Assembly: GCA_963664405.1 (NCBI GenBank)
Contig: OY761158.1
Location: 6,368,001-6,432,000, forward strand
Direction: 5' to 3'
Length of the DNA stretch: 64,000 bases
From: Thermoanaerobaculia bacterium
GTDB taxonomy: Bacteria; Acidobacteriota; Thermoanaerobaculia; Multivoradales; Multivoraceae
Below are positions 24,992 through 42,611 of this stretch, piece by piece; the stretch's first letter is position 1, and each line of letters opens with the position of its first letter. The position numbers were made by a program, and so were the translations under genes. Below the pieces are notes generated by a model that did not search any database, was not told where the DNA came from, and saw nothing but the letters and a program-made list of their open reading frames with translations.

Positions 24992-25013
24992 CGTGCATCG
25001 CTGAGAACTAGCG
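24974..25013 (+). repeat. Perfect 20-bp tandem duplication spanning a stop codon
   Basis: TGCATCGCTGAGAACTAGCG x2. Confidence 0.9.
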
Positions 25014-25044
25014 CGTTCACGTACTTATTAGAGAGGCTGATGAC

Positions 25045-26235
25045 ATGAGCTCTGTTCTAGCGGGAACTCGCGTTCTCGATTTCGGGCGGTATATCGCCGG
25101 GCCCTATTGCGCCACCCTTCTCGGCGACATGGGGGCGGACGTGGTGCGGGTGGAGAAGCCTGGCACTGGCAGTGAAGATCGCTGGACGACTCCGATCGCC
25201 GAGGGCGGGGAGGGTAGCTTGTTCATGCAGGTCAATCGCAACAAGCGCTGCCTGACCCTGAACCCCAAGAAACCGGAGGGCCGGCGCATCGTCAAGGAGC
25301 TGGTCTCACGCTCTGACGTGGTGGTGGCCAATCTGCCGCCGCAGACTCTGAAGTCGATGGATCTCGACTACGAGTCGTTGAAAGCGACCAAGCCGGACAT
25401 TATTCTTTCCACCGTCTCGGCCTTCGGTCACGGCGGACCCTACAGTCACCGGGTCGGCTTCGACGGTATCGCCCAGGCGATGTCGGGAGCGATGTACATG
25501 TCGGGTGAGGCGGAAGAACCCGCCAGGCTCTACTACCCCTGGGTCGACTTCACCACCGCCATCCTCACTGCCTTCGGCACAATGGCGGCGATCGTCGAGC
25601 GCCAGAAGACGGGCGAAGGCCAGCAGGTCGAAGGCTCTCTTCTCGCCTCGTCGCTCACCGTCGGTAACAGCACCCTGATCGAGCAGGCCGTCATCGAGGC
25701 GAATCGCACTGCCACCGGGAACCGGGGCCAGACCGCGGCGCCGGTCGATTGCTTCCGCACCAAGGACGGCTTTGTCCAAGTGCTCGTGGTCGGTCAACCC
25801 CTCTTCGAGCGCTGGGCGCGTCTCATGGGTGACGAGCGCCAGTGGCTCGACGACGAGCGCTTCAAAGACGACCTCGCCCGCGGAAACAACGGCGTGGTGA
25901 TCTCAGAGCGAATGCAGCGCTGGTGCGACGATCGCACAACGGCGGAGTGTTTAGAGGATCTGGACGAAGCGAGAGTTCCGGTTGGCCCGGTGTACTCGCC
26001 TCAGCAGGCCTTGGACGATCCTCATATCCAGGCGATGAAGTTCATGGAGCCGGTCGACTACCCCGGCTTGCCGCGGCCCGCTCCGATCGCGGGGACACCG
26101 GTGCGCCTGTCGCGGACGCCGGGTGAGATTCGCCACCGCGCCCCCCTGTTGGGGGAGCACACCGACGAGATCCTCGCCGAGCTTGGCTACGATACCGTTG
26201 CGATAGAGGGGCTTCGCGCAGACAACGTGGTGTGA
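25045..26235 (+). CDS. CoA-transferase family III (CaiB/BaiF)
   Basis: AGPYC..LLGDMGADVVRVE, NRNKR, GFD.IAQA and APLLGEHT motifs. Confidence 0.93.
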   Translation: MSSVLAGTRVLDFGRYIAGPYCATLLGDMGADVVRVEKPGTGSEDRWTTPIAEGGEGSLFMQVNRNKRCLTLNPKKPEGRRIVKELVSRSDVVVANLPPQTLKSMDLDYESLKATKPDIILSTVSAFGHGGPYSHRVGFDGIAQAMSGAMYMSGEAEEPARLYYPWVDFTTAILTAFGTMAAIVERQKTGEGQQVEGSLLASSLTVGNSTLIEQAVIEANRTATGNRGQTAAPVDCFRTKDGFVQVLVVGQPLFERWARLMGDERQWLDDERFKDDLARGNNGVVISERMQRWCDDRTTAECLEDLDEARVPVGPVYSPQQALDDPHIQAMKFMEPVDYPGLPRPAPIAGTPVRLSRTPGEIRHRAPLLGEHTDEILAELGYDTVAIEGLRADNVV

Positions 26236-26239
26236 GCGC

Positions 26240-26689
26240 CTACGGGAGCGGAATCAGGTCGTCTCGCTCCGTCAGCTCTCGTAGCCGCTCCTCGCAGCGA
26301 GCGATGACCTGCACCGCGTCGAGGTCGGGGAAGCGCTTGGCGTCTGAAGAGACGTTGCTCCAACGGATGGTGGTCCGGCGCGGCGCGGCACGACCGCCGG
26401 GCTGCGCGACCAGCATACGGATCACCGTCTCGCTGGTGTCGGAGACGTGGAATAGTTCGCCCCGGCTCTCCTCTTCGGCCACGGCGCCCCGGCGCAGCAG
26501 CTCTCCGCCGGCCACATCCAGTGTCGGCAGCCCCTCGCCTTCGAGATCCGCGAGCAGATTCCGCATCTCGTCGGTGGAGAGTTGCAGCTCGTAGTCGCCG
26601 GCCCTCTTCATATAGACGGGGTAGTGAACGCGAGCTCGGCCGTCACCGTAGAGGCGCAAGAGCGGGGTCGGGTCCTGCTCGGCGAGCAT
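26240..26689 (-). CDS. Hypothetical protein, possibly 5'-truncated
   Basis: Coding-like ORF (LLRLYGDGRARVHYPVYMKRAGDY); the frame appears to continue upstream of the ATG toward the motif at 26779. Confidence 0.5.
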   Translation of the reverse strand: MLAEQDPTPLLRLYGDGRARVHYPVYMKRAGDYELQLSTDEMRNLLADLEGEGLPTLDVAGGELLRRGAVAEEESRGELFHVSDTSETVIRMLVAQPGGRAAPRRTTIRWSNVSSDAKRFPDLDAVQVIARCEERLRELTERDDLIPLP

Positions 26690-26778
26690 GTGGTGGATCT
26701 GGGTGTACTCCAGAATGACGTCGGTGGGCAGCGCACGGGCGGGCGGGCGCCGATGACCAGACGAGAAGTGATTGCTCC

Positions 26779-26794
26779 AAGAAGTGCCACCCGA
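26779..26794 (-). repeat. 16-bp motif TCGGGTGGCACTTCTT, copy 1 (reverse orientation)
   Basis: Exact reverse complement of 40286-40301; 14/16 match to the intron-split copy at 28004-28013 + 33262-33267. Confidence 0.75.
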
Positions 26795-27044
26795 GTATCG
26801 AGTGAGGACTTGAATGGCGGGGAGAGCTCGAAGCTGTTGATGCGTCGAGGACCCTGCGCGTCCTCTTCGGCGCTAGGTTTGCTCTGTCTGACCGTGCACC
26901 CGCCGGGAGTCCTCCTCCCCCGAGACTAGACCTCGAGAGCGAAGTGCGCTAGAAGGCACACGAGGGCGCCCGGTTCGGATTCCGAGGAGAGTTGCCGCCG
27001 TTCTCTGAGCCTTTCCGCTCGAGACGACCGGTGAATGTCGAGAA

Positions 27045-27956
27045 TCAGGTGACAACGAAGGGCAAGGCGGGCGGGAAACATCGCTGCGGAAAGCCGACAG
27101 GCCCAAATTCGGGGAGCTTTCCGCAGGCCTCGCGATAGACAGCTACAAAGCGTTCGTAGGCTTCGTGGAATTGACGAGCCCTTCGCCTCGTAGCCGCGTG
27201 AACGAGCGGAGCGGGGGATCTCGCGCTCGTGCTTGGTCTTCCGTGACGATCCTGTTTCATGATGCCTTCTCTCCCAAGAGGTCGTCCGCCACGCCGGCGC
27301 TGCGTCTCTGCAATGTGTCCAACGCGTTCCCGGAACCATTCAAGACGATCCTCGGGCCTCCAGGCCACCATACAGGGCAGCGGGGTCAGCGTGACCACGC
27401 GACGCTCGACAAAGCGCTCGACCGATGTGTCTGCACCCCGTTGATGTGCCTGATACTGAGCTGTCCGATTGACCCATTCGCCTTCGATTTCGCTCCTTTC
27501 ATGGAGAAGGGCGTGAGTACTCTGCGCTCCTGGCCAGTCCTGGGGCTTCGCGACTAGGCCCTCCTTGCAACCCTGTGCGAGGACGTAATCCATACGCGAG
27601 AGTTGCGCAGTCTCTTCCTCCGTCACCACGATCGCCTGGTATCGGCGGCCCCAGAACTTCTCCCGCCACTGGGCGAGTCTTCCTGCCTCTCGAGCTACGT
27701 TGGATTGAACGTAGTTCATGAAGCGAGCCATCTGCTCGGCATCATCGACGGTTATGAGCAGATGGCAGTGGTTTGAAAGGTAGGTGAAGGCGTGGATCTC
27801 GACCTCATAGAGCTCCTGCGCGCGGCTAAGGACTCCTATGATGCGACGCTTGAGACGCCTCGAAGGACGCAGCAGAAAGCGCCCCTGCATCGTGCGACAA
27901 GTGATCTCGACCAGAGATCGCTCGGGAACAAAGCGGATTCGACGGCTCATACCCAT
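27045..27956 (-). mobile_element. Y1/HUH transposase (IS200/REP-associated tyrosine transposase-like)
   Basis: ITCRT..GRFLLRP, HUH motif YLSNHCHLL, FWGRRY and downstream Tyr (MDYVL). Confidence 0.85.
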
Positions 27957-28422
27957 CTAGGGTGCGTGGGCGGCGGGAAAAATGCGCTCTGCGTCAACCT
28001 TTTTCGGGTGGCAGTGCGACACGAAGGAGGAATCTGATGACCTGATCGAAAGACAGAGATAGGAGACCTCTGGGTCTCGAAGGCCGACGGGTGAAAGTCC
28101 CGCCCGGGGAGTTGTCGGTACACCCCGGTAGCCGCCGGAGCAGTCGATGCGGGTGACCGTCCGGCTGAAGCCTCCGGAACAGCTGGAGTAAGTCCAGTGG
28201 GCAAAGGTGCAGGCCGCAACGCGAGTGAACCCTGAGAAGGCCCCGAAAGTTACTTGCTGGAGCCGACCCTCCTGCCATAAGGGGAAGGCCGCCGCTCGAC
28301 GGAGGAGCAACCGACCGTTGAATCCGCCGAATCCAGCCGGGGTAGTGGGGGTGGCATGTACCGAAGGTCTTTGAGGCAACGTGTGAGACCCACGTCGGTG
28401 GCGGGTTGCGACCGCCAACCGG

Positions 28423-28899
28423 TGAGAGTGAGCACGATAATCGATGGGAATGTTGGCCATTCTGAGCACGGTAGGTGAGGGAAGGGTGTTTGGTCCCTCA
28501 AGTAGTGTGCTCAAGACTAGGTCCGTCGGCATCATCCCCGCCGAAGGCGGGCCGTCGGGGCCTGACGCGCAGTCCATACTTGTTCTTTCGCTGATCACGC
28601 TGAACGAGGGCTGACACGCAGCGATGGGATGAACGGCACGCTATCTGATGGGCGATCGAGGCGGTTCGCCGAGCTTCCATCGCGCTTGGGCCCCTGGTTG
28701 CGCCCTCAGATACCTTGAACGGAACACCCATTCCCACCAGACAACGTGATCGGGTTTCCTCGAATCGCCATCAAATACTGTGAACAAGACCGTCTGAGGC
28801 AAGTGGCAGCGAAACGCAGCTTCGGCTAAGTCCTTCAAAAGGCTACGCGACCATCACTTATCGTGATCGGACCGCCATCGATTATCGTGCTCACTCTCA
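28423..28899. mobile_element. 477-bp non-autonomous transposon inside intron 1 domain II
   Basis: Perfect 25-bp TIRs (TGAGAGTGAGCACGATAATCGATGG) and a 5-bp direct repeat ACCGG at 28418 and 28900. Confidence 0.9.
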
Positions 28900-29594
28900 A
28901 CCGGGAAGGCGTAAAAGGTCGTTCTCGGGCCGTTGTGGGAGTCGGAGGGGCTTGTATTGTGCGCCAGGCAGCGCGTTGATCGGGAGGGTTTGAGTCCCTC
29001 CGGCGCTCGGATGAGGGGCGTCGTATCCAAAAGCGGGGGTAATGCCTCGCTGGCCGAAGAGGGAGACAGGTATGGAGAGCTCTAAACGGGCACGAAGGGG
29101 AAACCCGGAAACAGCCAAGGGTGACCTGGAGCCAGCTCTCGTGAGACTTCGGAGGGCAGGGTGTCCACCGCGAGGTGGGATCCGAAGGGCTTGCGGAGAA
29201 GTACCGGGCCGTAGTCGATGGGGGCCACCCCGAAGACGAACCGGTCGGCCAAAGGTGGGACAAGGTCGAGCCTGCAGTATGGAGGCGAAGGCATTTTTCA
29301 TCCACCCACCGCACCAAGGTGTTTGCGGACGGCACGGTACGGAAGATCAGCGTGTGACCCTGGGAGAGCTCGTCGTGTCTGCGGGTGGCACCGCGGTAAC
29401 GGACCCTATAAGCGCAAGCGAAGTGGGAAGGGATGCGCGGCGAGCAGTCGGACGGTCGAGTAGTACTTCAAGCGCGGTGAAAGCCGTGTGACCGCGAGGA
29501 GCGGCAGCTGTGTGAGCTGGGGAAGGCGGCCGGCGAAGACGGTAGGGGAGAGAAGGAAGGCGAGCGAGTAAGGCGGTCGAGGCTGGATAGTTCC

Positions 29595-32500
29595 ATGAGT
29601 GAAAAACCCGAACATCGACAGCCGAGGAGACTGGCTGACTGGATCAACCCGTCGGGAGAGAGGAAGATTCACTCTCTGATCGACAAGGTGTACAAGCGCA
29701 AGAACCTGGAGATCGCCTGGGAACGCGTCAAGTCCAATCGGGGCGCGGGCGGCATCGACGGCCAGAGCATCGAGGAGTTCTCCGAGGGGCTCTCTGAGCA
29801 CCTCGACAGACTTCACGAGGAGCTGTGTCGTGATGAGTACCGACCGCAACCCGTGAGGCAGAAGCGGATCCCGAAGGCGGGCCAGCCGGGGAAGTACCGC
29901 ACGTTGGGCATCCCCACGGTCTATGACCGTGTCTGCCAGCAAGCGATGCTGAATCGGTTGGAGCCGATCTTCGAGCCGGTATTCGATGCTGCCAGCTTCG
30001 GATACCGTCGAGGGCGATCCCAACACGGGGCTCTGCGCAAGGTTTGGAAGGAGATCCAATCGGGCAAGGAGTGGATCGTGGACGCGGACCTGAGGGATTT
30101 CTTCGGGAGCGTGGACCACGAGAAGCTGTTGACGCTCGTGAGCCAACGGGTTTCCGACGGTCGGGTGCTGAGGGTTTTGCGCTCAGTACTCAAAGCCGGG
30201 AGCTACGGGGAGGGTCGCCTGTTTCCGACCGAGCGTGGGACTCCGCAGGGCGGGGTCGTATCGCCCTTGCTGAGCAACATTCTTCTGACTCCTTTTGATC
30301 AGGAGATGCGACGCAGAGGGTTTCGACTCACGCGGTATGCCGACGACTGTGCGCCACGACGGCGCGAAAGGAGTACTCATGTAATTGGGTGTTCTAGAGC
30401 AGCCTTGCTACACGAGAGATGAGGGTGGGCCCCTCGGAGCCGGCATGCAGGTGCAGGCTTCAAACCGCCACGAGCTGCGCGGGTCAAGAGCCCGGGTGGT
30501 GAGCGTCGCTGGAAAAGGCGGGACAAGATTCCGTCAGGTGTGGATCGAGGAGACGAGCGCAAGCGAACCGTCGATGACCTGTCGAAAGCGTAGGGACGAC
30601 GTCAAAACCGGAGGGAGTCGTTACTCCGGGAGGAGTCTGGGTGTTACCTGCCTACAGCCCAGGCGGCGTCCGGCAGCAAGGCGGCGTGACCTCGATGCAG
30701 GCTCTCGTGTGGAACGTGGGAACCTGTCGTCCCGATGCGAAGGGAGAATTCCAAGTGGTCGACCCATGAGGAAGAGAGTACCGATGCGGGGCACAGGGGC
30801 GGAGTCGCGCGTAGTAGTGAGGAAGGTCCTGTAATGGGGCCGGAGCGAAGGCGCGGCACCAACCAGCCGGGTCCGGAGGCCAACCGGCAACGGGAGGAGT
30901 CTTTGGCGAAGGCAAAGCCCTTTCGCATTCCCAAGCGGTGGGTTTGGGAGGCGTACAAGCGGGTAAAGGCAAACCGAGGCGCGGCAGGCGTGGATGGGCA
31001 GTCGTTGGCAGCTTTCGAGGAGCGTCTGAGAGACAATCTGTACAAGCTGTGGAATCGGCTGTCATCAGGGAGCTACATGCCGCCGCCGGTCAAGCGGGTA
31101 GAGATCCCGAAGCCCGGCGGTGGAACGCGTCCCCTGGGTGTGCCAACCGTGGCGGATCGGATCGCGCAAACGGTCGTGAAGAGGATCCTGGAGGCCGAGG
31201 TGGAGACACACTTCCACCCAGACTCCTACGGGTACCGGCCCGGGAAATCAGCGCTTGGTGCGTTGGGTGTGGCGCGGCAGCGATGCTGGCGCTACGACTG
31301 GGTTTTGGATCTCGATGTCAAAGGTTTTTTCGACGCGATCGATCACGATCTTCTGCTGCGGGCGGTGCGTTACCACACGGATTGCCGTTGGGTGCTGCTC
31401 TACATTGGGCGGTGGCTCCGTGCCCCCGTTCAGTTGAAGGATGGCACTCTTGAGTCTCGGGAGAGGGGGACTCCCCAGGGGTCGGTGGTTTCACCACTGC
31501 TGGCGAACCTCTTCTTGCACTATGCGTTCGACCGGTGGATGGCGCGTCACCACTCGGACATTCCGTTCGAGAGGTTTGCTGACGATGCGATCTGCCATTG
31601 CCGAACGGCGGAGCAAGCGCAGAGACTGAAGCAGGAGCTCGCGGGTCGCTTTGCGGCATGTGGGCTTGAGCTGCATCCGCGCAAGACGAAGATCGTCTAC
31701 TGCAAGGATGACGACCGACGGGGGACGTACGAGAACGAGAAGTTTGACTTCTTGGGCTACACGTTTCGTGCTCGGCGATCGAAGAATCGCTGGGGTAAGT
31801 ACTTCGTCAACTTCAGTCCCGGCGTGAGCAACGCGGCGGGTAAAGCGATGCGTCAGACCATTCGGGGCTGGCGTCTCGACTGTCGGATCGACAAGCAAGT
31901 GGACGACCTGGCTCGGATGTTCAATCCGATCGTCCAGGGCTGGATCAACTACTACGGTCGGTACTACAAGTCGGCGCTCTATCCGTCCCTTTGCCATCTT
32001 GATCGTCATCTGGCTCGCTGGGCGAGGGCGAAATACAAACGTCTGCGGAGACATCGAAGGAGATCGGATCAGTGGGTGCGGAAAGTCCGTGACCGGGATC
32101 CACATCTCTTTGCGCATTGGCGCTTCATGTCGTCTCAGGCGAAGGCTGGATGGTAAGAGCCGGATGAGTGGAGACATTCACGTCCGGTTCTGTGAGGGGG
32201 TGGGGGTGAGATTCCCCCGCCCTACTCGACGGGTCCTCACTTCTTCGACCGTGGCTGAGGCTCGTAGAGCCTTGGCTGTGGCGACGAGGATCTTGGAGCG
32301 GCTCGGTGTCTCCATCAATCCGCAGAAGACGCGGATCGTGCACGTGAAGCATGGTTTCGAGTTTCTCGGGTACAAGATCAAGCTCGGAAAGCAGCTTCGG
32401 CTGCCGCGGGCGAAGATCCGCAGCGGTGCCCTTTCGGGCGCCCTGTATGCCTACCCGACTCAGAAGTCGATCCAGCACTTCAAGCAGCAGATTCGCGGTC

Positions 32501-32784
32501 GGACGCGGCGGAAGGCACCGGTTACCACCGAGCAGCTGATCGAACAGCTGAATCCGGTCCTGCGTGGATGGGGGCACTACTACAAACGTGCCCACGTCCG
32601 ACGGCTCTTTCACCAGCTCGACCCATGGGTGGTGCGGCGCCTCTGGTCGCACCGTCACAAGCGCTGGCGCTGTAAAGGGTGGGACAGCCTGCCCAAGGCC
32701 ACGCTGTACGGCGAGATGGGCTTGGTGAACCTTGTCGGTCTGATTCCTTCCATCGATTCTTCCCCCAAGGGGGCGTCTTCGTGA
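29595..32784 (+). CDS. ltrA: Intron 2 reverse transcriptase/maturase, split: join(29595..30348,32231..32784), 435 aa
   Basis: RT0-7 motifs (LGIPTVYDR, DADLRDFF, GTPQGG..SPLL.N); splicing restores YADD-W-VLT, then F.FLGY and domain X (LNPVLRGWGHYY); 1308 nt in frame. Confidence 0.9.
30349..32230 (+). ncRNA. Group II intron 3 (class D/RmInt1-like), inserted right after the YADD codons of the intron 2 RT
   Basis: 5' GTGCGCC; EBS2 CGGCAT (30441) and EBS1 AGTCGT (30616) complement exon ATGCCG-ACGACT; domain V GAGCCGGATGAGTGGAGACATTCACGTCCGGTTC; 3' CCTACTCGAC. Confidence 0.92.
30903..32156 (+). CDS. ltrA: Intron 3 reverse transcriptase/maturase (no endonuclease domain)
   Basis: TTG start after GGAGGAG; NLYKLWNRLSSGSY.PPPV, GTPQG..SPLLAN, RFADD, FDFLGY, GWINYYG; ends at LFAHW. 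Confidence 0.93.
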   Translation: MAKAKPFRIPKRWVWEAYKRVKANRGAAGVDGQSLAAFEERLRDNLYKLWNRLSSGSYMPPPVKRVEIPKPGGGTRPLGVPTVADRIAQTVVKRILEAEVETHFHPDSYGYRPGKSALGALGVARQRCWRYDWVLDLDVKGFFDAIDHDLLLRAVRYHTDCRWVLLYIGRWLRAPVQLKDGTLESRERGTPQGSVVSPLLANLFLHYAFDRWMARHHSDIPFERFADDAICHCRTAEQAQRLKQELAGRFAACGLELHPRKTKIVYCKDDDRRGTYENEKFDFLGYTFRARRSKNRWGKYFVNFSPGVSNAAGKAMRQTIRGWRLDCRIDKQVDDLARMFNPIVQGWINYYGRYYKSALYPSLCHLDRHLARWARAKYKRLRRHRRRSDQWVRKVRDRDPHLFAHWRFMSSQAKAGW

Positions 32785-33261
32785 AAGCCGGATGCGGGAA
32801 ATCTGCACGTCCGGTTTGAGCGGCGGACGGAGGCCAGCCTGCGGGTAACCGCGGGCGCCTCCTCCGACCCGACACTGACGAAGCCGGGTAACTCCGGTGG
32901 AGGGAAGGAGCCCTAGTTCTGGTGCGCTTTGGAAGGAGAAGGAGACCGGGATTGACGCAAGTCTAGGAACCCGAATGAGTCAAACGACTCCGGAAGAAGC
33001 TCTGTGACAAGACCAAGCGAGAGGACGGTACAAGCTCCGATCGCAAGGAGCCGCCCGGCTAGATCGGGTCGAGGGGATCGACTCGCGAATGCCTTGTCGT
33101 GAAGCCAGTCCGGGAGCCGTGTGCGGGAAAACCGCAAGCACGGTTCGATGAGAGGCGGCGGGAAACGGAGCCAAGGACAGGATAGTGAGGCACTCGCAAC
33201 CGAAAGGGCGAGAAAACAGATGGGCCTGACCTACAGCCACCGCGCCCGCCGTCGACTCCAC

Positions 33262-33375
33262 CCTCATTTCAAGGCGTCCTCCCAGGGGATCTTCGTCAAA
33301 GGCAAGAACATTCGGGTGCCTGCCGGTACGGAGTACATGCTGTTCACCAGGGACGACTCGGGGGTTCGCATGTAA
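33262..33375 (+). pseudogene. 3' fragment of an unknown gene abutting the intron-split motif
   Basis: ...GIFVKGKNIRVPAGTEYMLF...* reads like a protein C-terminus but has no 5' part. Confidence 0.4.
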
Positions 33376-33430
33376 CCCAGCGAGCGTCGGCGGGCTGTGA
33401 GCTCGGGAGGCAGCCGCCAATGAATCCACC

Positions 33431-33904
33431 TCAGAGGGCCATGGCGAAGAGCCCCGCCGCGGCCAGTGACGCGGCGGTCCTGACGGTATTCCAGAGAGTC
33501 CAACGCGAGAGGTAGTGGTCCCACAACGCCTCTGCACCCGAGCTGTCTGGCTCGGCAGATGCCAGCCGATTGTTCAGAGGCACGTTGAACGCTACCGTCA
33601 CCAGAAGGCACCCGAGCAAATAGAGGGCACACCCAGCGAGCAAGTACGCCCGGTGCGTCCCGGTAGTGCTCCCCAAAGCGAGAAAGGCGACTGGGAGGCA
33701 CGCCGCCCCCGTCCCAAAAAAGGCGAGGACGAACCACGGGTTGAGTACCGTGACGTTGATGGCCTTCATGGCGGCGATTCCCTCACTCTTCGGCAACTGG
33801 CCGAGGGCTCGCATGATGAATGTCGAGAAGGCGAAGAAGATTCCGGCCACTAGGCCGGAGCCCAGCACCGCGGCGAAGATCAGCAGGTCTAAGAGATGAT
33901 TCAT
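33431..33904 (-). CDS. DUF1772 / anthrone oxygenase family membrane protein
   Basis: GLVAGIFFAFSTFIM.AL, AMKAIN, NVPLNN.L and W..WNTVRT; ATGA overlap with the upstream gene. Confidence 0.88.
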   Translation of the reverse strand: MNHLLDLLIFAAVLGSGLVAGIFFAFSTFIMRALGQLPKSEGIAAMKAINVTVLNPWFVLAFFGTGAACLPVAFLALGSTTGTHRAYLLAGCALYLLGCLLVTVAFNVPLNNRLASAEPDSSGAEALWDHYLSRWTLWNTVRTAASLAAAGLFAMAL

Positions 33905-34923
33905 CCTTGGCGCTCCCAGATGCCGGTCGCGGCGGTCTGAAGAGCGTAGTCGGTGAAGTCGCGAGGCTCTCTTCCCAGTGCTCGACGCACGCCGTCTCCC
34001 AAGTGAGCGTTTCGACCGTCGAGGACGGTGGCGAAGAGGTAATTCAACAGCCACGCGATGTCCTCCGGTAGGCCCCCCTCAGCCACCCCGGCCGCGAAGG
34101 CTTCGGGCGGGATCTGCTCGTAGCGGATCTCACGTCCGGTCGCCCGGGCGATCTCGCCCACTGCTTCAGCGAAGGTGAGGAGTCGGGGCCCGGTGAGCTC
34201 GTAGATCTGGCCGCCGTGGCCGTCTTCGGTCAGCGCGGCAACTGCGACATCGGCGATGTCGTCCACGTCGACGAACGGCTCCCCGACTTCGCCCGCTGGA
34301 AGCGCGATCTCTCCGCCCAGCACCATGTCGAGAAATTCCCCTTCTGAGAAGTTCTGGGAGAACCAGCTGCAGCGAACGACGGTCCATTCGATGTCCGCAC
34401 GTTGGATGATGAGCTCGCACTCCTGCGCCTCCTCCTCTCCGCGACCGGACAGGAGAACCAAGCGCCGCACTCCCTGCCTCACGGCTCGCTCGACGAAGGC
34501 GCGGATGGCGTCCGTCGCCCCCGGGATGGCGAGGTCGGGGGCATAGCTGATGTACGCCGCGGTAACGCTATCGAGCACGGCGCCCCAATTGCTCTGATCG
34601 CCCCAGTCGAAGGGCGGATCGGACTGCCGCGACCCCTTCCGCACTGGGTGGCCTTTCTCTGCGAGACCTTCGACGATCCGTCGACCGGTTTTGCCGGTGA
34701 CCACCATCGTGTCACCGGAAATGGCGAGGATTCCAAACTTGTCCCCAGCCTCGGTATTGGAGGCCTTGAGATAGATGGCTTGCTCAAAGCTGGAATCAAT
34801 GGTGAGCGGATAATTGGATAAGTCATTAGGCACCTCGCCGGCTTCGACGCCGCCGGGAGCCACTACTCCTACACTAGGGAGGCACAAGAGGGCGAGAGCC
34901 CACAACGGTGTCCTGAAGGGCAA
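33901..34923 (-). CDS. NmrA-like NAD(P)H-binding protein with a foreign N-terminus (probable chimera/pseudogene)
   Basis: TGKTGRR...FDW...LSGRGE...WFSQNF...FVDVDDIADVA core, preceded by a signal peptide and an FG-GAP-like YLKASNT..GD.FG..AISGDT segment. Confidence 0.7.
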   Translation of the reverse strand: MPFRTPLWALALLCLPSVGVVAPGGVEAGEVPNDLSNYPLTIDSSFEQAIYLKASNTEAGDKFGILAISGDTMVVTGKTGRRIVEGLAEKGHPVRKGSRQSDPPFDWGDQSNWGAVLDSVTAAYISYAPDLAIPGATDAIRAFVERAVRQGVRRLVLLSGRGEEEAQECELIIQRADIEWTVVRCSWFSQNFSEGEFLDMVLGGEIALPAGEVGEPFVDVDDIADVAVAALTEDGHGGQIYELTGPRLLTFAEAVGEIARATGREIRYEQIPPEAFAAGVAEGGLPEDIAWLLNYLFATVLDGRNAHLGDGVRRALGREPRDFTDYALQTAATGIWERQG

Positions 34924-35339
34924 GTCTCCTTTCTCAGGTCGCGAGCGACAGGATGTTCAAAGCGGCGGTATCGTGATTCTGACAGAGTTTCCTTTTCTGC
35001 GCGAAGCCGGGCCGCTCAGAGCGGTCACCACTGCCGCAGTCCGTCAGCTTCTGCTCACGTGGCCCGGGCACCGCGAGCCTTGCTCTAGTCGAGGAGCCGC
35101 GATAGCCAATGCAGAGTGTTCATGAACAGCTGCGGGTTGTGGAGCTCCGGATGGCGCTCAGCCCACTCCCGTGGATCTGCGACTATTCCGTGCTCGCTAA
35201 AGATGGCGAGCCGTCCTCTTTCGACTCGTAGCACCCCCCGGTTCTTGGGACTGGACCGATCCCGCGATGAGGACGATAGCCGAGAGCAGAAGAGACCACC
35301 CTTCGCGGGCTCCCGAGAGGATTTCGACCGTGCCTGAGG

Positions 35340-35882
35340 TCAGGCCCACGGCAGACGTCCCTTGCCAGCCAGGTGAGCCAGCACGCCTTCCAGCAACGCT
35401 CGGCCGTCCTTTGCCGGCTCTACACCGACCTCTCGAGCCCACTCTGGCCACGCCCTCAGCTGGGTCGCGTGGTGTCCGGTCTCGGTGTGGACTTGTCGCC
35501 CGAGGACGAGCAGGCGCTGTTGGAGCGCCCTGCCGGCTTTGCCGCTCGCCCGTACCGTTCCCTCGCGCTCGACCCGGCCCAGTAGCGCCTGTTCTTCTTC
35601 CGATAGCCCGTCGCGGCTCGCCTCGAGGGCGGCGGCAAGCAGCGCCGGCCACAACCGCCGGTGAACGAAGGTCGTCTTCCCGGAGACCAGCTTGCAAACC
35701 AGCACATCGGGATGGTCCTCGAGCTCACCAGTGAGCGCGAAGATGCGATGGCTCTCTGGGTGGCCCCACCAAGAGCCCTTTACCGACCCCACAAGCAGCC
35801 CGACGACGCTCGGCAGGGCCTTGTCTTGCTGCAACAGCAGCCCGTACTCTTCGAGGGCCTCCAGCAGGTCGCTAAACTCCAT
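35340..35882 (-). CDS. Conserved hypothetical protein
   Basis: Coding-like ORF with GSWWGHP and KLVSGKTTFVHRRLWP motifs; follows the hydrolase gene. Confidence 0.7.
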   Translation of the reverse strand: MEFSDLLEALEEYGLLLQQDKALPSVVGLLVGSVKGSWWGHPESHRIFALTGELEDHPDVLVCKLVSGKTTFVHRRLWPALLAAALEASRDGLSEEEQALLGRVEREGTVRASGKAGRALQQRLLVLGRQVHTETGHHATQLRAWPEWAREVGVEPAKDGRALLEGVLAHLAGKGRLPWA

Positions 35883-35887
35883 CGCGG

Positions 35888-36769
35888 CTACTTCGTCGAC
35901 ACTGAGGCCAAGAAGCGGCTGAGCTCGGCCTCAAACTCTGCCGGCCGCTCGATCATCAGAAAGTGGCTGACATCGCGCCACATCACCCAGTCGAGCTGCG
36001 GCGCCAGTTTCTCGATTGCGGCTCTGTACTCGTCGTTCCAGGTCGGCTGTTCGACCAGGAGTGCCAGCAACGGTACGCGGATCACTTCGTCACTCCACAT
36101 CGCCGGATCGGCCGTCGCGAGCACCGCATCGACCATCGTCCGTTGCGGTGTGGCAAGAGCCATCTCGGTGATGCCCCGGACGCTCTCTTCCGCAAGGCCG
36201 CCGCCCGCCATCCCCGTGATCATCTGGGTCACGGTGTCCCGGTAGCCCTCTGCGCGCAGCGGCGCGACCATACCTTCGACCGCTTCGACCGTGAACATGT
36301 GCCGCAGTGCGCCATCGACCGCCACCAGCGCCGCCGTTCGCTCAGGATAGGAGCGGTAAAAGCGCACCGCCACCGGCGTGCCGTTGGAGTGACCGACAAT
36401 CACCGCCCGCTCGACCCCGGCGTCGTCCATCACAGTGGCTACGGCGTCGGCGAAGAGGCCCAGGGTGTATTCCTCATCGTCACCGATCTCGTCGCTCTTG
36501 CCGTGACCCGGTAGATCGACGACCAGCACCCTGCCAAGCTCGCTGAGCGCCGGCAGCTGCCGATGCCAGGCCCAGGTCGAGCTCGCCCAGCCGTGAACGA
36601 GAACAAGAGTCGGTTTGTCGCTCTGCGACCTGCCGTAGCTCTCGTAGTAGAGCTTGTGGCCGTCGAGCGTCGTCGTGTGCTCAGAAGCGTGCGTCTCGGC
36701 GGAGATCGGCGATCCGGCCAGGCCGAGCAGGAGCAGCAATGAGGGAATCGTGGGAAGAGGGTCGGTCAC
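35888..36769 (-). CDS. Secreted alpha/beta hydrolase
   Basis: LVHGW, DLPGHGKS, GHSNG nucleophile elbow and C-terminal SHF. Confidence 0.9.
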   Translation of the reverse strand: MTDPLPTIPSLLLLLGLAGSPISAETHASEHTTTLDGHKLYYESYGRSQSDKPTLVLVHGWASSTWAWHRQLPALSELGRVLVVDLPGHGKSDEIGDDEEYTLGLFADAVATVMDDAGVERAVIVGHSNGTPVAVRFYRSYPERTAALVAVDGALRHMFTVEAVEGMVAPLRAEGYRDTVTQMITGMAGGGLAEESVRGITEMALATPQRTMVDAVLATADPAMWSDEVIRVPLLALLVEQPTWNDEYRAAIEKLAPQLDWVMWRDVSHFLMIERPAEFEAELSRFLASVSTK

Positions 36770-36798
36770 GCGACGTGCTCACGAGGGGATTATCGAAC

Positions 36799-36964
36799 CT
36801 AGACCAGCGTTTCCAAAGTTCGCGCACATATCTCGGCCCCTTCTGCCCGCTGCCGGCGTTACGCCTCCTCGACATATTGCCCAATATGCCTGCGTCGGCG
36901 CGCCTGGCCAGCGAACAGAATGAGCTCGAGCTATGCAGCACGAACTTTGGAAACGCTGGTCTAG
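36799..36964. mobile_element. Palindromic MITE/REPIN-like element, terminal type B (copy B1)
   Basis: CTAG-ACCAGCGTTTCCAAAGTTCG ... CGAACTTTGGAAACGCTGGT-CTAG; 166 bp. Confidence 0.88.
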
Positions 36965-37016
36965 TTTGCGCCATGAGCTGAATAGGCGCAACTTCTTGCG
37001 GTCTCCTCCGTTACTT

Positions 37017-37068
37017 CTCTTGACGGTCTACAGGAACGCGTGGTATCACTACTGTAGACCATCAAGAG
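37017..37068 (+). promoter_or_regulatory. Putative sigma70 promoter overlapped by two inverted 17-bp operator boxes upstream of padR
   Basis: TTGACG (37020) - 18 nt - TATCAC (37044); CTCTTGACGGTCTACAG and CTGTAGACCATCAAGAG are 16/17 inverted copies. Confidence 0.6.
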
Positions 37069-37075
37069 GAAGGCC

Positions 37076-37420
37076 ATGGCACACGACCAATCCGAACTTC
37101 TCCAGGGCACGTTGGAGCTCTTGATCCTGAAGACGCTCTCGCTCGAGCCGCTGCACGGCTGGGGGATCAGCTTGCGGATCCGGCAGATGTCGAGAGACGT
37201 GTTCCAGGTGAACCAGGGAAGCCTCTATCCCGCACTCCAGCGGATGACGTCCAAAGGCTGGATCCGCTCCGAGTGGCGGACGACAGAAAACAATAGGCGC
37301 GCGAGGTACTACATGCCGACCCCGGCAGGGGAGCGGGAGCTAGCCCGGGAGCGCTCGCAGTGGGAGCGCTCATCAGCCGCCGTCAACTGGGTCCTCAACT
37401 CGACCGGAAACACCGCATGA
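37076..37420 (+). CDS. PadR family transcriptional regulator (Acidobacterial subfamily)
   Basis: LLQGTLELLILKTL..PLHGWGI, GSLYPAL.R and ENNRRARYY motifs. Confidence 0.93.
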   Translation: MAHDQSELLQGTLELLILKTLSLEPLHGWGISLRIRQMSRDVFQVNQGSLYPALQRMTSKGWIRSEWRTTENNRRARYYMPTPAGERELARERSQWERSSAAVNWVLNSTGNTA

Positions 37421-40135
37421 GGTGGGTCGCGGCGTGGCGCGAGCGGTTGCGGGCACTGATCTTCCGGGCGCGCCAGGAGACCGAGCTGGACGAGGAGCTT
37501 CGCTTCCATCTAGACCAGGAGACGGAGCTCCTCCTCGAGGCGGGGCTCGACCCGCAGGAAGCGAGGCGCCAGGCCCGACTTCGCTTTGGCGGCGTCGAGC
37601 GATTCAAGGAAGAGGTGCGGGAGGCGCGTGGCACAGGTGTAATCGACTGCCTGATGCTCGACACACGCTATGCCGCCCGGCGGCTCACGCGCGACTGGCG
37701 TTTCACGCTGCCCGCGGTGCTGATCCTCGCACTCGGGATCGGCGCGAACACCGCAATGTTCAGCGTTGTGAATAGGGCGTTGTTCCAGCCGCTGCCCTTC
37801 GCCGATGCCGATCGACTAGTCAACATCTACCAGAACGTAGGCGAATCGAGTCAGCCCTGGGCCAGCTCCTATCCGGCCTACCAGGACATGGCCGGCTACA
37901 CCGATCTGTTCTCCGGGGTGGCGGCTTCCATGATGCCAACACAGGTTCGCTATTTGGCGGGCCCGCTCGTCAGGACAGGGTCGGCCGAGTACGCCACGTC
38001 CAACTACCTGGAGGTCCAGGGGGTGGACCTGCCCATGGGACGATGGTTCACCGCCGAAGAGGACCGGCCCGGCGCAGCGGCGGTGGCCGTCCTCGGTCAC
38101 CAAGCCTGGACCTCCAAGTTTGGCGCGGCGCCGTCGGTGCTCGGACAGACGATGCGCATCAACGGCGTCCCGGTCACGATCATCGGTGTCGGTCCCGAGG
38201 CGTACAACAGCAATTTCCACTCTGGGTGGGTGACGGACTTCTGGCTCCCGATCTCCTCCGTGACGACGGTCGGGGGGCGCGCGGATGTGCTGCAGCGAAG
38301 GGACGAGGATGCATTTCTGGTCAGAGCCCGTCTGCGGGGCGGTGTGAGCCTGCCCCAGGCACAGGCGGCGATGACGGCTCTCGGAGCGCATCTGGCGAAG
38401 GAGTATCCGGACGACGATCCGGGGCGCGGTATTTCGGTATTGCGATCGGACGAGGTCCTCGTTCACCCCCAGTTCGACACGATACTGGGTGCGGGAGCTT
38501 CGATCCTGATGATCGTGGTGGCGCTGATCCTGGCCATCGCCTGCACCAACTTGGCGACATGGCTTCTCGTGCGCGGACTGTCGCGCGCCAAAGAGATGTC
38601 GGTCCGCCTGGCTTTGGGTGCCACCCGCGCGCAGCTGGCACGCCATCTGCTGGTCGAGAGCACAGTGTTGGCGGGGTGGGTGGTGCGGTGGGTTACCTCT
38701 TGGCGGAATGGGCGATTCGACTGGTGGCGCTCATGGACCTGCCGGTGGACGCAAGCGGTGGCCTCGACTACCGGGTGCTCGGCTTCACGCTGGCACTGTC
38801 GCTACTGACCGGCGTGGCCTTAGGGCTCGCGCCGGCGCTCAACGCCACAGGGGTCACTCTGACACCGAGTCTACGAGCCGATGAGGCCACTCTCGACCCG
38901 AACCGCCGAGGGTTCAACCTCAGAAACGTACTCGTCGTCTCTCAGGTGGTGCTCTCGTGCGTGCTGTTGGTCTTCGAGGGAATCCATCTGCGCGCTCTCG
39001 CCACCACACAGGCGGTGGACCTCGGTTTCAGTGTCGAAGGGCTGGCGTTTATCGAAACGGACGCCTCCTTCGCAGGGTATGCGCCGGACGAGGCGGTGGC
39101 GCTGTACGAGGCCTTGCGCGAACGGCTCTCGGTGCTCCCCGGTGTCGAGTCGGCTAGTCTCGCGGCAGGCCCGCCCCCAGCGTGGCAGCACAGCAGTGAG
39201 CTCGCTATCGATGGGTATGAGCCCGCCGCCGGCGAGCGCCCCTGGGTGCGATGGGTGTGGGCAGGACCTGATTACTTCGACGTGCTTCGCGTCCCGCTTC
39301 TGTATGGCCGCACTTTCACCGACTTTGACCGGCCCGAGACACCGGGCGTCACGGTGATCAACGAGAGCCTGGCGCGCCTTTACTTCGGAACGCCGAATGC
39401 AGTTGGTCGGCGCCTCCGCCTGGTGGATGGTTCCCGTTCGAAGGCAGATGGGGCTCCAGGAGCCGAGCTCGAGGTCATCGGCGTGGTGCCCGACGACTGA
39501 CGTCCCTTACCGACGTCTGGCGTCCGTTGCTCTACCGGTCCTACCACCAGGGGATGGCGATCACGTCGACGGTGCTGGTGCGAACAACGGCGGATCCGGC
39601 CAGCCTGCTGCGACCCATGCTACAAGCGGTTCGCGATCTCGACGACGCGCTGCCCGTCATCACCGCCAAGACGATGACCCAGCATGTCTCTGACTCCCTT
39701 GGCCCTCTGCGGCGCGGTATCGGGTCGCTCCTGGGTCCACTCAGTGCGCTGGGACTCGGATTGGCCAGCCTGGGCCTGTATGTCGTCGTCAGCTTTGCCG
39801 TGTTGCGGCGGTCGCGGGAGATCGGCATCCGCATGACGCTGGGCGCACGGCCGCCACGGGTGATCTGGGTCCTATCGAAGAGCGTGGCGAAGCTGCTCGG
39901 GGTCGGTGTGACGCTGGGTCTGGCGCTGTCATGGCTCGTCGTTCTGGGACTGGGCGCGCTGCATTCCAGCCTCGACCAACAAGAGTCTGTTGGGTTGGCG
40001 TCCGCACCGGCCGCCGACCCGATGACCTTCGCGCTCGTGATGCTGGTCATGGCCGCCGTCGGCCTCGCGGCCACCTTCTTCCCCGCATGGCGCGCTACCA
40101 GGGCCAACCCACTCGTGGCGCTGCGCGATCTGTAA
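37417..40135 (+). pseudogene. ADOP-type (MacB/FtsX duplicated) ABC permease with two frameshifts
   Basis: ELDEELRFHL...RFGG..., ALGIGANTAMFS, R.KE..VRLALGA and REIGIRM.LGA; frame changes at ~38675 and ~39495. Confidence 0.85.
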
Positions 40136-40142
40136 GACGCGG

Positions 40143-40280
40143 TCACCCGACGTGCTCACGAACACGCTTCTCGATTTCAGCTCCCACCGCGCGCCGCGCC
40201 ATTCGTAGCTCGAAGTCAGCCTGGAGGCCCGTCCAAGTCTCAGCTGAGACGCCGAAGCACCTGCTGGATCTAGCGACAAC
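40143..40280 (-). pseudogene. C-terminal fragment of a HigA-family antitoxin
   Basis: FGVSAETWTGLQADFELR..R....EIEKRV resembles the HigA C-terminus; the HTH part is absent. Confidence 0.55.
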
Positions 40281-40281
40281 T

Positions 40282-40917
40282 TTATTCGGGTGGCACTTCT
40301 TCCCTCCCCCCGAGGGGGGGCCCAAAGCGCGGAAGAAGGCGCCCGGTGTCTCTACGATATTCCTCGTAGCAACGGCCGAACTTCTTGACCAGCTCGGCCT
40401 CCTCGCGCGGGATGATGACGAGGGAGAAGAAGACCAAGGCAGCCAAGGTGAGCGCCGCCATCAGCCAGTTCGCCACCACCAGGCTCAGCGCTCCGAGCAT
40501 GAGCAAGCCGAAGGAGTAGAGAGGGTGGCGCAGCCACCGGTAAGGGCCCGTTCTCACCAGCTCGTGGCTCTGCTTGGTCAGCACCGTCTCCGAGATGTTC
40601 TTGCCTAGGCTACGAAGCATCCAGACGTTCAGGGGCGCTACCGCCAGACCCACGAGAACCCCGATCCAGCGAACCCAGGCGGGGACGGCAAGCGACGACC
40701 AGGCGATCCAAGAGGGATGGATCAGGAAGGCGAGGATGAGCAGCAGCCCCGGAAGGCTGATCAGAACCCGTGCTAGTCGCAGTCGGCTCGATTCGGCCGA
40801 GCGCGAAATCGTCTCCTCGGAGCGCGCTCGGCGCCGGTAGTAACCGGAGATCGTCCCATTGAGGAGTAGCACCAGCAAGAGCAGCCAACGGAAGATCTGT
40901 GGGTCTGGATCTGACAT
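40282..40917 (-). CDS. Isoprenylcysteine carboxyl methyltransferase family membrane protein
   Basis: LGKN.S...H.LV.TGPYRWLRHPLY, EE..L...FG..Y..Y. Confidence 0.88.
   Translation of the reverse strand: MSDPDPQIFRWLLLLVLLLNGTISGYYRRRARSEETISRSAESSRLRLARVLISLPGLLLILAFLIHPSWIAWSSLAVPAWVRWIGVLVGLAVAPLNVWMLRSLGKNISETVLTKQSHELVRTGPYRWLRHPLYSFGLLMLGALSLVVANWLMAALTLAALVFFSLVIIPREEAELVKKFGRCYEEYRRDTGRLLPRFGPPLGGREEVPPE
40286..40301 (+). repeat. 16-bp motif TCGGGTGGCACTTCTT, copy 3
   Basis: Perfect inverted repeat of 26779-26794. Confidence 0.75.
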
Positions 40918-40964
40918 GGATGATCGAGGGCGCCACCATCGCGAGATGGCGCGCTCGCAGCTCT

Positions 40965-42611
<1,647 letters not shown>

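Follow-up and report, generated by a model that had tools for sequence, protein, structure and literature searches.

In the described REP/REPIN-RAYT systems, in which short repetitive extragenic palindromic (REP) sequences are paired with REP-associated tyrosine transposases (RAYTs), the enzyme is of the Y1/HUH type with an HUH motif and a catalytic tyrosine, its gene is flanked by inverted short repeats, and the repeats are imperfect palindromes, conserved together with a 5' tag, that are scattered between genes in large numbers, frequently as inverted doublets. In the RAYT groups that are linked to REPINs, the transposase gene has been described as single-copy and vertically inherited. Bacterial group II introns have been described with three target strategies, namely unique homing sites, terminators and attC sites, and those lacking an open reading frame (ORF) are rare and co-occur with related ORF-bearing copies, according to the part of a review available to us (Zimmerly and Semper 2015, PMC4424553). 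A table in the available part of a study on insertion sequences (ISs) that target REPs lists two of nine copies of a P. putida group II intron as REP-associated (Tobes and Pareja 2006, PMC1525189). Here we describe a locus of a Thermoanaerobaculia bacterium of the Acidobacteriota, contained in a stretch of 64,000 nucleotides (contig OY761158.1, positions 6,368,001 to 6,432,000; hereafter the window), in which a Y1 transposase gene lies among three copies of a 16-nt motif and a group II intron, intron A, splits one of these copies. Taking all evidence together, we consider it probable that the 16-mer belongs, as a variant, to a REP-like repeat dispersed through this genome, that copies of this repeat bracket RAYT-like Y1 genes, and that intron A homes into it.

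The 16-mer TCGGGTGGCACTTCTT was found exactly at 26779-26794 on the minus strand and at 40286-40301 on the plus strand, as the earlier note had reported, and these were the only exact matches within the window and in the whole genome, a single contig of 6,780,313 bp. The identity shared by the two copies was confined to the 16 nt, and their flanks were unrelated. The third copy claimed in that note, matching at 14 of 16 positions, was also recovered in two halves, with the 5' exon ending in TCGGGTGGCA at 28004-28013 and the 3' exon starting with CCTCAT at 33262; between them lies intron A, which starts with GTGCG at 28014 and whose Rfam match to domains D5-D6 ends at 33261. When up to two mismatches were allowed, 13 matches were found in the genome and the reversed control gave 9; at its full length the 16-mer therefore does not constitute a repeat family of its own. 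Its first 11 letters, TCGGGTGGCAC, were present in 43 copies, and the variant with C at position 5, TCGGCTGGCAC, in 38, compared with six for each of the reversed controls. Intergenic DNA made up 17.6% of the genome according to a simple home-made gene caller, and 51 of the 83 copies of GGGTGGCACC and 31 of the 56 copies of GGCTGGCACC were intergenic, compared with 1 of 27 and 1 of 18 copies for the respective controls. The pattern GG[GC]TGGCACC had 82 intergenic copies, compared with two for the reversed controls.

Column counts over these 82 intergenic copies gave the consensus box AATATTCGG[G/C]TGGCACC(T), of which 17 nt are conserved. The 35 nt immediately 3' of the box folded with a median energy of -10.3 kcal/mol compared with -7.0 kcal/mol in random intergenic 35-mers (Mann-Whitney p = 2e-9), and a minimum free energy of -12 kcal/mol or lower was reached by 38% of the copies and 13% of the controls. 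Six pairs of boxes were arranged head-to-head within 200 nt and none tail-to-tail. One such head-to-head doublet is located in the window at 81-213, with GGCTGGCACC at 81-90 on the minus strand and GGGTGGCACC at 204-213 on the plus strand. The repeat thus occurs, as REPs do, in many dispersed intergenic copies (82 against 2) and in inverted doublets (6 against 0). The orientation of the boxes showed no evident replichore bias. The word GGGTGGCACC was also observed inside intron B, a further intron nested in intron A, at 29381-29392 of the window and in all three genomic copies of intron B, where it is probably a chance match or part of a stem.

The box was closely associated with the Y1 transposase genes. 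The Y1 protein of the window is encoded at 27045-27956 on the minus strand, and 13 full-length paralogs and one fragment were found in the genome. Boxes, taken as GGGTGGNAC or GGGTGACAC, were searched for in the 330 nt upstream and the 420 nt downstream of the paralogs and of 4937 control genes. A box was located upstream on the opposite strand in 9/13 paralogs and 41/4937 control genes, and downstream on the same strand in 10/13 paralogs and 47/4937 controls. Boxes on both sides, inverted with respect to each other as are the repeats that flank RAYT genes, were observed at 8/13 paralogs and at only 2/4937 control genes, and no box in the wrong orientation was found at any of the 13. The distances were also constrained, clustering between about 55 and 250 nt on the upstream side and between 222 and 309 nt on the downstream side. 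In the window, the downstream ('right-end type') box is the 16-mer at 26779-26794 on the minus strand, 255 nt past the Y1 stop codon, a spacing as in the 10/13 paralogs, and the upstream box is the copy whose 5' half at 28004-28013 (plus strand) and 3' half at 33262-33267 are separated by intron A; it lies about 50 nt before the Y1 start codon and raises the upstream total to 10/13 when counted. A genome-wide count of the motif, which the earlier note had proposed together with a look for enrichment beside Y1 genes, thus found the boxes of the repeat family enriched there, inverted and in fixed orientation. At the closest paralog (2208825), a box with the same hairpin was found on both sides, which is the architecture of the dispersed copies. 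That note had taken the motif for the end or recombination signal of the HUH transposase; its link with the Y1 family is borne out by these counts (8/13 against 2/4937).

The tail of the 16-mer, ...ACTTCTT, was typical of the boxes downstream of Y1 genes. Intergenic matches to GGGTG[GA]NACT were nearly confined to positions 254-305 nt from Y1 genes, the exception being the copy at 40286. This bears on whether the 16/16 identity of the two exact copies is a matter of chance within the family, with no specific history behind it. The core 11-mer occurs 43 times and only five more letters have to agree, and the flanks of the two copies are unrelated, so that chance is a possible explanation, if one on the unlikely side. 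Against it, only these two of the 43 core copies continue with TTCTT. Intergenic tails of the GGGTGGNACT type are otherwise almost confined to sites 254-305 nt past Y1 genes, which suggests the right end of a Y1 module as the origin of the copy at 40286.

Sequence and fold comparisons placed the Y1 protein near the RAYTs. It is 303 aa long, with a C-terminal extension of about 160 aa, and matched Pfam Y1_Tnp with 37.8 bits (cutoff 23). Its best NCBIfam model was REP_Tyr_transpos, the model of REP-associated tyrosine transposases, with a score of 54.5 that is below the cutoff of 80, and transpos_IS200 scored 24.8 against a cutoff of 55. A sequence search of the PDB returned 4ER8, the REP-associated enzyme of E. 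coli, as the sole match (E = 0.009), in an alignment that spans the HUH histidines and the region of the catalytic tyrosine. The AlphaFold model (mean pLDDT, the per-residue confidence, 84.8) again had 4ER8 as the top fold match (E = 5e-6, TM 0.62 on target), followed by the ISDra2, IS200 and IS608 transposases; the fold matches were limited to about 115-135 N-terminal residues, and the extra C-terminal domain had no match in the PDB. Among 33 sequences, H63 and Y124 were invariant and H65 was at least 90% conserved, so that the HUH motif and the catalytic tyrosine of RAYT-type enzymes are both present. We call the protein RAYT-like because of the best NCBIfam model, the sequence and fold match to 4ER8 and the conserved H63, H65 and Y124. 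It departs from the described RAYTs in its length, its copy number and the non-palindromic conserved box that accompanies it. A total of 2211 database relatives of about 305-313 aa were found, many of them on contigs of 1-2 kb, and some were named 'REP element-mobilizing transposase RayT' by one source.

The boxes could instead be ordinary terminal inverted repeats of an IS-like element, with the dispersed copies being MITE (miniature inverted-repeat transposable element) or solo-end debris and nothing of the REP/RAYT type. The 13 paralogs, the many homologs on 1-2 kb contigs and the fixed positions and inverted orientation of the boxes would all be expected of such an element; the identity between the pair 6297348/1064349 runs through their upstream boxes, and the head-to-head doublets look like internally deleted elements. 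However, the pair 5855890/6180487 and the downstream end of 6297348/1064349 lose their identity before the boxes, solo boxes far exceed the genes (82 against 13), and the closest match in both sequence and fold is a REP-associated enzyme. The features of IS200/IS605 elements were also lacking, as the IS200 model scored below its cutoff, the boxes are inverted, and no second ORF was found inside the Y1 module. To our knowledge, terminal inverted repeats are absent from elements with Y1/HUH transposases of the IS200/IS605 type, which further counts against an ordinary IS. We therefore regard an IS-like element as unlikely and retain the REP-like repeat with RAYT-like genes as the better description.

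The association of box and Y1 gene extended to other genomes of the order. The 13-mer TTCGGSTGGCACC was enriched over its control in this genome (41 against 1) and in three others, G020 (36 against 0), G019 (12 against 1) and G028 (10 against 1), with no enrichment in the other 27 genomes searched. In G019, G020 and G028, which represent three other families of the order, 5/9 homologs of the Y1 protein had an upstream box in the same orientation and 2/9 a downstream one; one homolog had two tandem copies of the full AATATTCGGCTGGCACC, and one match in that set was in the wrong orientation. In G020 the 13-mer was also observed in tandem arrays with a spacing of 18-90 nt (C14:54432-54606, C4:118748-118904 and C22:42509-42712). 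In G005, a genome of the same family as ours, 30 matches to the Y1 protein were found, several of them clustered a few kb apart. Other Y1 subfamilies presumably use other ends.

The earlier note had proposed that the two exact 16-mers delimit a 13.5-kb unit, 26779-40301, and such a composite unit would be moved or inverted as a block by the Y1 transposase. In favour of such a unit, the copies agree at all 16 nt and are inverted like the boxes flanking Y1 genes and the doublets, truncated genes abut both of them, and they share the CTTCTT tail that is otherwise seen only beside Y1 genes. The partner of the 26779 copy is nevertheless the intron-split copy at 28004, 1.2 kb away and at the canonical upstream distance of the other paralogs, so that the module closes there; by the paralog pattern, the true module runs from 26779 to 28013 and continues at 33262-33267. 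The identity also does not extend past the 16 nt, and of the two truncated genes one lies outside the interval and one inside it. The first, the ORF called 26240 in that note (26243-26740, minus strand), abuts the 26779 box and is 5'-truncated with its signal-peptide end missing; compared with its closest homolog of 206 aa it lacks about 56 N-terminal residues, and its frame is open through the box. The second is a C-terminal higA fragment (40146-40271, minus strand) that abuts the 40286 box and corresponds to residues ~72-112 of a 115-aa paralog. An inversion between the two 16-mers was also considered and rejected, as no N-terminal piece of higA was found near 26779 or elsewhere in the window. 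The statement that each copy lies next to a broken gene thus holds for the 26240 ORF and for higA; for the 33262 'fragment' of 35 aa, neither a Pfam match nor a paralog was found.

The genes inside the interval gave no sign of a block either. Those at 33.4-40.1 kb encode a DUF1772/anthrone-oxygenase-like membrane protein, an NmrA-like protein, an alpha/beta hydrolase, a PadR regulator and a MacB/FtsX-type permease, and are ordinary genes of ordinary GC content. Contigs assembled from runs X1 and X2, which come from two independent studies, matched 24500-28038 and 37587-41072/40404, and thus both sites, with 0 differences, and none of the contig joints listed spans the 26779-40301 block; the low coverage of 34.7-39.8 kb in run X8 was not used as evidence. 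The interval is thus unsupported as a unit, which we hold to be very improbable, and the 40286 copy is a solo repeat, one of about 80 dispersed copies. It occupies 40286-40301 on the plus strand and is followed by a GC-rich hairpin at about 40302-40345. Because two box copies abut 5'-truncated genes, box copies coincide with rearrangement breakpoints; this fits a recombination-prone site, and nothing indicates that the block moves as one.

Several observations concern the surrounding genes. An ICMT-family ORF (40282-40968, minus strand) ends inside the 40286 box, which provides its final seven codons along with its stop codon. The MacB/FtsX-type permease beside PadR was seen as three overlapping or adjacent ORFs (37360-38808, 38043-39500 and 39527-40135), and this split permease at 37360-40135 is probably a pseudogene. 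The neighbouring fumarase gene was found in 5/18 relatives, and in four regions of 10-20 kb around it no other gene of the window was found. Likewise, none of the 15 loci of the 26240 gene in the species collection had another window gene nearby.

The box could also be a regulatory site, that is, a sigma-54-type or other promoter or an operator, with the transposase and intron nearby only incidentally. The core contains TGGCAC, GC at the -24/-12 spacing was found in 23/82 copies in comparison with the consensus of sigma-54 promoters, and a box in the same orientation stands ahead of each of the three toxin-antitoxin operons of one array. The fuller -12 element was found in 0/82 copies, and the next gene within 300 nt was a same-strand start in only 28/82 cases, the end of a convergent gene in 34 and absent in 20; the promoter reading was rejected on these counts, and a promoter would not account for the doublets or for the inverted boxes on the two sides of Y1 genes either. 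The boxes do not form a family of promoters or terminators, and a regulatory role is hardly credible. The array itself, at genome positions 6212127-6216332, carries on one strand a box with a VapB-like gene and a PIN gene, a box with an antitoxin gene and ParE, a box with Phd and PIN, and a box with the master copy of intron A, a layout that resembles cassettes. Boxes and toxin-antitoxin genes showed no general association: outside this array, which supplied the queries and for which an association test is therefore circular, only one toxin-antitoxin-like locus, the higA piece of the window, was found within 400 nt of a box.

The second mobile element that uses the box is intron A. Three group II introns were identified by Rfam as nested in each other, with intron C in the reverse transcriptase (RT) gene of intron B, intron B in intron A and intron A in the box. 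Intron A (28014-33261, plus strand, delimited by Rfam and by blastn copies) is ORF-less, 851 nt long in its bare form, and carries a MITE as well as introns B and C. It matched the Rfam D1D4-4 model at 28085-28224 with 97.9 bits and the D5-D6 model (Intron_gpII) at 33112-33261 with 40.4 bits (gathering score 40), and the ribozyme domains, the GUGYG start and the 3' D5-D6 of a group II intron are thus all present. Six copies or fragments were found in the genome by blastn, namely the window copy, a 2035-nt master at 6214298-6216332, a bare 851-nt copy at 2592101, a copy at 2890811 with a partly deleted intron B, and two fragments. All six had their 5' junction at TCGG[C/G]TGGCA|, five of the six had AATA-like letters ahead of it, and the 3' exons of the four complete copies began with CCT or CTT, with unrelated flanks outside the box. 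The TCGG context was present at only 81 of the 1940 genomic [CG]TGGCAC sites, so the specificity of the intron extends past the last six exon bases. Where the earlier note had counted two remaining unoccupied sites, the genome holds 81 unoccupied TCGG[CG]TGGCAC sites. The master copy encodes a 454-aa RT-maturase with RVT_1 (1e-40) and GIIM (2e-10) domains and no further domain detected; the window copy has no such gene, and the ORF-less copies are presumably mobilised in trans.

The pairing expected of such targeting was also found. The first exon-binding site (EBS1) of intron A is a UGCCAU loop at 28273-28278 on the plus strand, a conserved consensus hairpin loop that covaries with the first intron-binding site (IBS1) in related introns. 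As the earlier note had proposed, it pairs with the exon GUGGCA, with one G-U pair, and a CUGGCA exon fits as well; the 5' half of the split box at 28004-28013 contains IBS1 and part of IBS2. The IBS1 could be read over 6 nt and the loop aligned in 22 related introns of other genomes; 14 of them paired with their own loop at 6/6, seven at 5/6 and one at 4/6, as counted by eye. Compensatory changes were seen at two positions, with CTGACA/TGTCAG twice and A, G or C at -6 opposite T, C or G in the loop, as in ATGGCA with TGCCAT and GTGGCA with TGCCAC, so that EBS1-IBS1 pairing specifies the target. A candidate EBS2, CCGAAAGUU, is located at 28243-28251 (plus strand) on the 5' side of the same hairpin; its complement is found in the AAUAUUCGG part of the box, with which it forms 4-7 contiguous pairs at the six sites of this genome, which partly supports its assignment as the EBS2 of intron A. 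The best covarying EBS2-like loop in the relatives was GUUUC with GAAAC at -13 to -9, with 69% of cells paired. From the position of all six junctions and the covariation of EBS1 with IBS1, we take intron A to retrohome specifically into the box, in agreement with the homing suggested in that note.

Relatives of intron A were found in 52/300 genomes of the order, a tally that includes one unpublished genome excluded from later steps. Among 26 foreign 5' junctions, 19 ended in TGGCA and seven differed from this by one letter. Enrichment of ARYGYCTGGCACC in five other genomes was weak or local, with 19 against 9 in G283, 10 against 2 in G549 and no excess in the other three. A search for occupied boxes in 30 relatives gave four matches to the junction pattern, which were rejected as chance matches in coding DNA rather than introns.

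The elements inside intron A, with boundaries set from the sequence and from genomic copies, form further layers. The MITE (28423-28900) is 478 bp long, has inverted ends of about 24 bp and is bordered by CCGG on both sides; short (~480 bp) and long (~1.85 kb) genomic copies of its family were observed. Intron B (28959-32873, plus strand) has an RT ORF in two pieces (29595-30348 and 32231-32784), split by intron C (30349-32230, plus strand), which has an intact RT-maturase ORF at 30735-32156 and is inserted directly after the YADD codons of the RT of intron B. Intron C was observed after the YADD codons in two different RT genes (window 30348/30349, and genome positions 3048372 and 2678712). 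The locus at genome positions 3046982-3050253, which has the RT of intron B as its 5' flank and the other of these two RT genes as its 3' flank, looks as if two copies of intron C had recombined there. The 3' exon of intron C, GGGTCCTCACTTCTT (32231-32245), loosely resembles the box tail GGGTGGCACTTCTT, which may be chance. Paralogous copies at other places in the genome account for the listed contig joints at 28415->28898, 28952/28958->32874 and 30348->32231. A contig of RNA library X19 (659 nt, 14 differences) matched a bare A-type intron and is a weak hint of expression of such an intron, with DNA carry-over as a possible source.

A bolder explanation would make the box a single-strand DNA site shared by two unrelated mobile machines, attC-like under the Y1 enzyme, with the EBS loops evolved to invade it. 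Cutting and joining by Y1 would then seed copies, truncate neighbouring genes and string small operons into arrays, of which one toxin-antitoxin array exists, and the intron would, by splitting a box, disarm a transposase end and thus be a hyperparasite on a parasite. The cumulative GC skew bottoms out near 2.7 Mb and peaks near 6.7 Mb, which places the window close to the inferred terminus. In 5/6 copies of intron A the sense strand coincides with the inferred lagging-strand template, and the sixth copy is located 0.1 Mb from the skew minimum. This agrees weakly with a shared single-strand site, an idea that we regard as decidedly unlikely.

Under the explanation that we favour, the AATATTCGG[G/C]TGGCACC box together with its variable GC-rich hairpin would be a REP-like dispersed repeat unit, which brackets the multi-copy, long (~300 aa) RAYT-like Y1/HUH genes in inverted orientation and whose solo copies and doublets are scattered between genes. 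By analogy with RAYTs and IS200/IS605 transposases, the Y1 protein would bind and cut the single-stranded box and hairpin, and thereby seed new copies and cause rearrangements next to them. Intron A would retrohome into the box through pairing of EBS1 with [G/C]TGGCA, probably of a second loop with the AATATTCGG part, and through C as the first base of the 3' exon. The one master copy outside the window would provide an endonuclease-less RT-maturase to ORF-less copies presumably mobilised in trans. In the window, intron A would have split the upstream box first, the MITE and intron B would then have invaded intron A, and intron C would have invaded intron B.

A number of points weigh against this explanation. 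The class 'intergenic' depends on a crude gene caller that called 82% of the genome as coding. The box is not palindromic and the hairpin on its 3' side varies in sequence, so that the repeat lacks the conserved, 5'-tagged imperfect palindrome of classical REPs. By the pattern used, 3/13 paralogs had no boxes, and none of 11 homologs examined in the relative G005 had a box. The near-identical pair 5855890/6180487 ceases to match some 60 nt before and some 30 nt after the ORF, short of the boxes, so the boxes do not simply mark the two ends of a unit copied in its entirety. Thirteen paralogs are a copy number typical of an IS rather than a RAYT, and the 13 paralogs with their fragment and the 30 matches in G005 differ from the single vertically inherited gene described for RAYTs. 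An action of the Y1 enzyme on the box is argued by analogy with RAYT and IS200/IS605 systems. The EBS2 pairing is weak, and the GUUUC/GAAAC loop of the relatives does not pair with the box of this genome in the same register. Lastly, the foreign junctions are mostly ...YTGGCA with a differing upstream part, and only 3/26 resemble the box of this genome, which suggests that few genomes besides this one have an intron tuned to the box as a whole.

The locus is of interest in several respects. An intron lineage whose pairing loops are tuned to a REP-like, Y1-linked repeat would gain dozens of harmless landing sites per genome. The box with its hairpin is a concrete candidate DNA partner for the long RayT-like form, which is widespread (2211 database relatives) and unstudied, and the window documents a four-layer stack of mobile elements. 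In a literature search whose scope left supplementary files outside, no intron lineage tuned to a transposase-linked dispersed repeat was found besides the table entry with two of nine copies.

Compared with known systems, the locus is closest to the REP/REPIN-RAYT pairs such as E. coli TnpA-REP (4ER8), with which it shares a Y1/HUH enzyme, a gene bracketed by inverted short repeats, dispersed solo copies and doublets. It differs from them in that the enzyme is twice as long, has an extra C-terminal domain and 13 paralogs, and scores below the cutoff of the NCBIfam family, and in that a 17-nt non-palindromic box beside a variable hairpin takes the place of the conserved tagged palindrome. The insertion of a mobile element into a dispersed repeat is known from the ISs that target REPs, in the part of that study available to us (PMC1525189), whereas here it was found at 6/6 sites, is explained by pairing between intron RNA and DNA, and involves a retroelement rather than a DNA transposon. 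As covered in the accessible part of the review (PMC4424553), class C group II introns are similar to intron A in being endonuclease-less and in using a repeated, structured, non-coding target that offers many sites in harmless places. In contrast to class C introns, which insert after terminators or attC sites, intron A lies inside the conserved box and upstream of the hairpin, not after it, has a 6-nt EBS1 that covaries with the exon, and matches Rfam group-II-D1D4-4 in D1; its likeness to class C appears to be one of behaviour only, as its position and the 6-nt EBS1 argue against membership. The combination of ORF-less copies with a related ORF-bearing copy in one genome is that reported for ORF-less introns mobilised in trans, again in the accessible part of that review (PMC4424553). 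Introns within introns that arose by repeated homing have also been described (PMC2882425, as far as that paper was available), while the nest here is three introns deep, includes a MITE and is located at a transposase-linked repeat. By analogy with these systems, the locus works like a REP/REPIN-RAYT pair that has been invaded by a site-specific retroelement.

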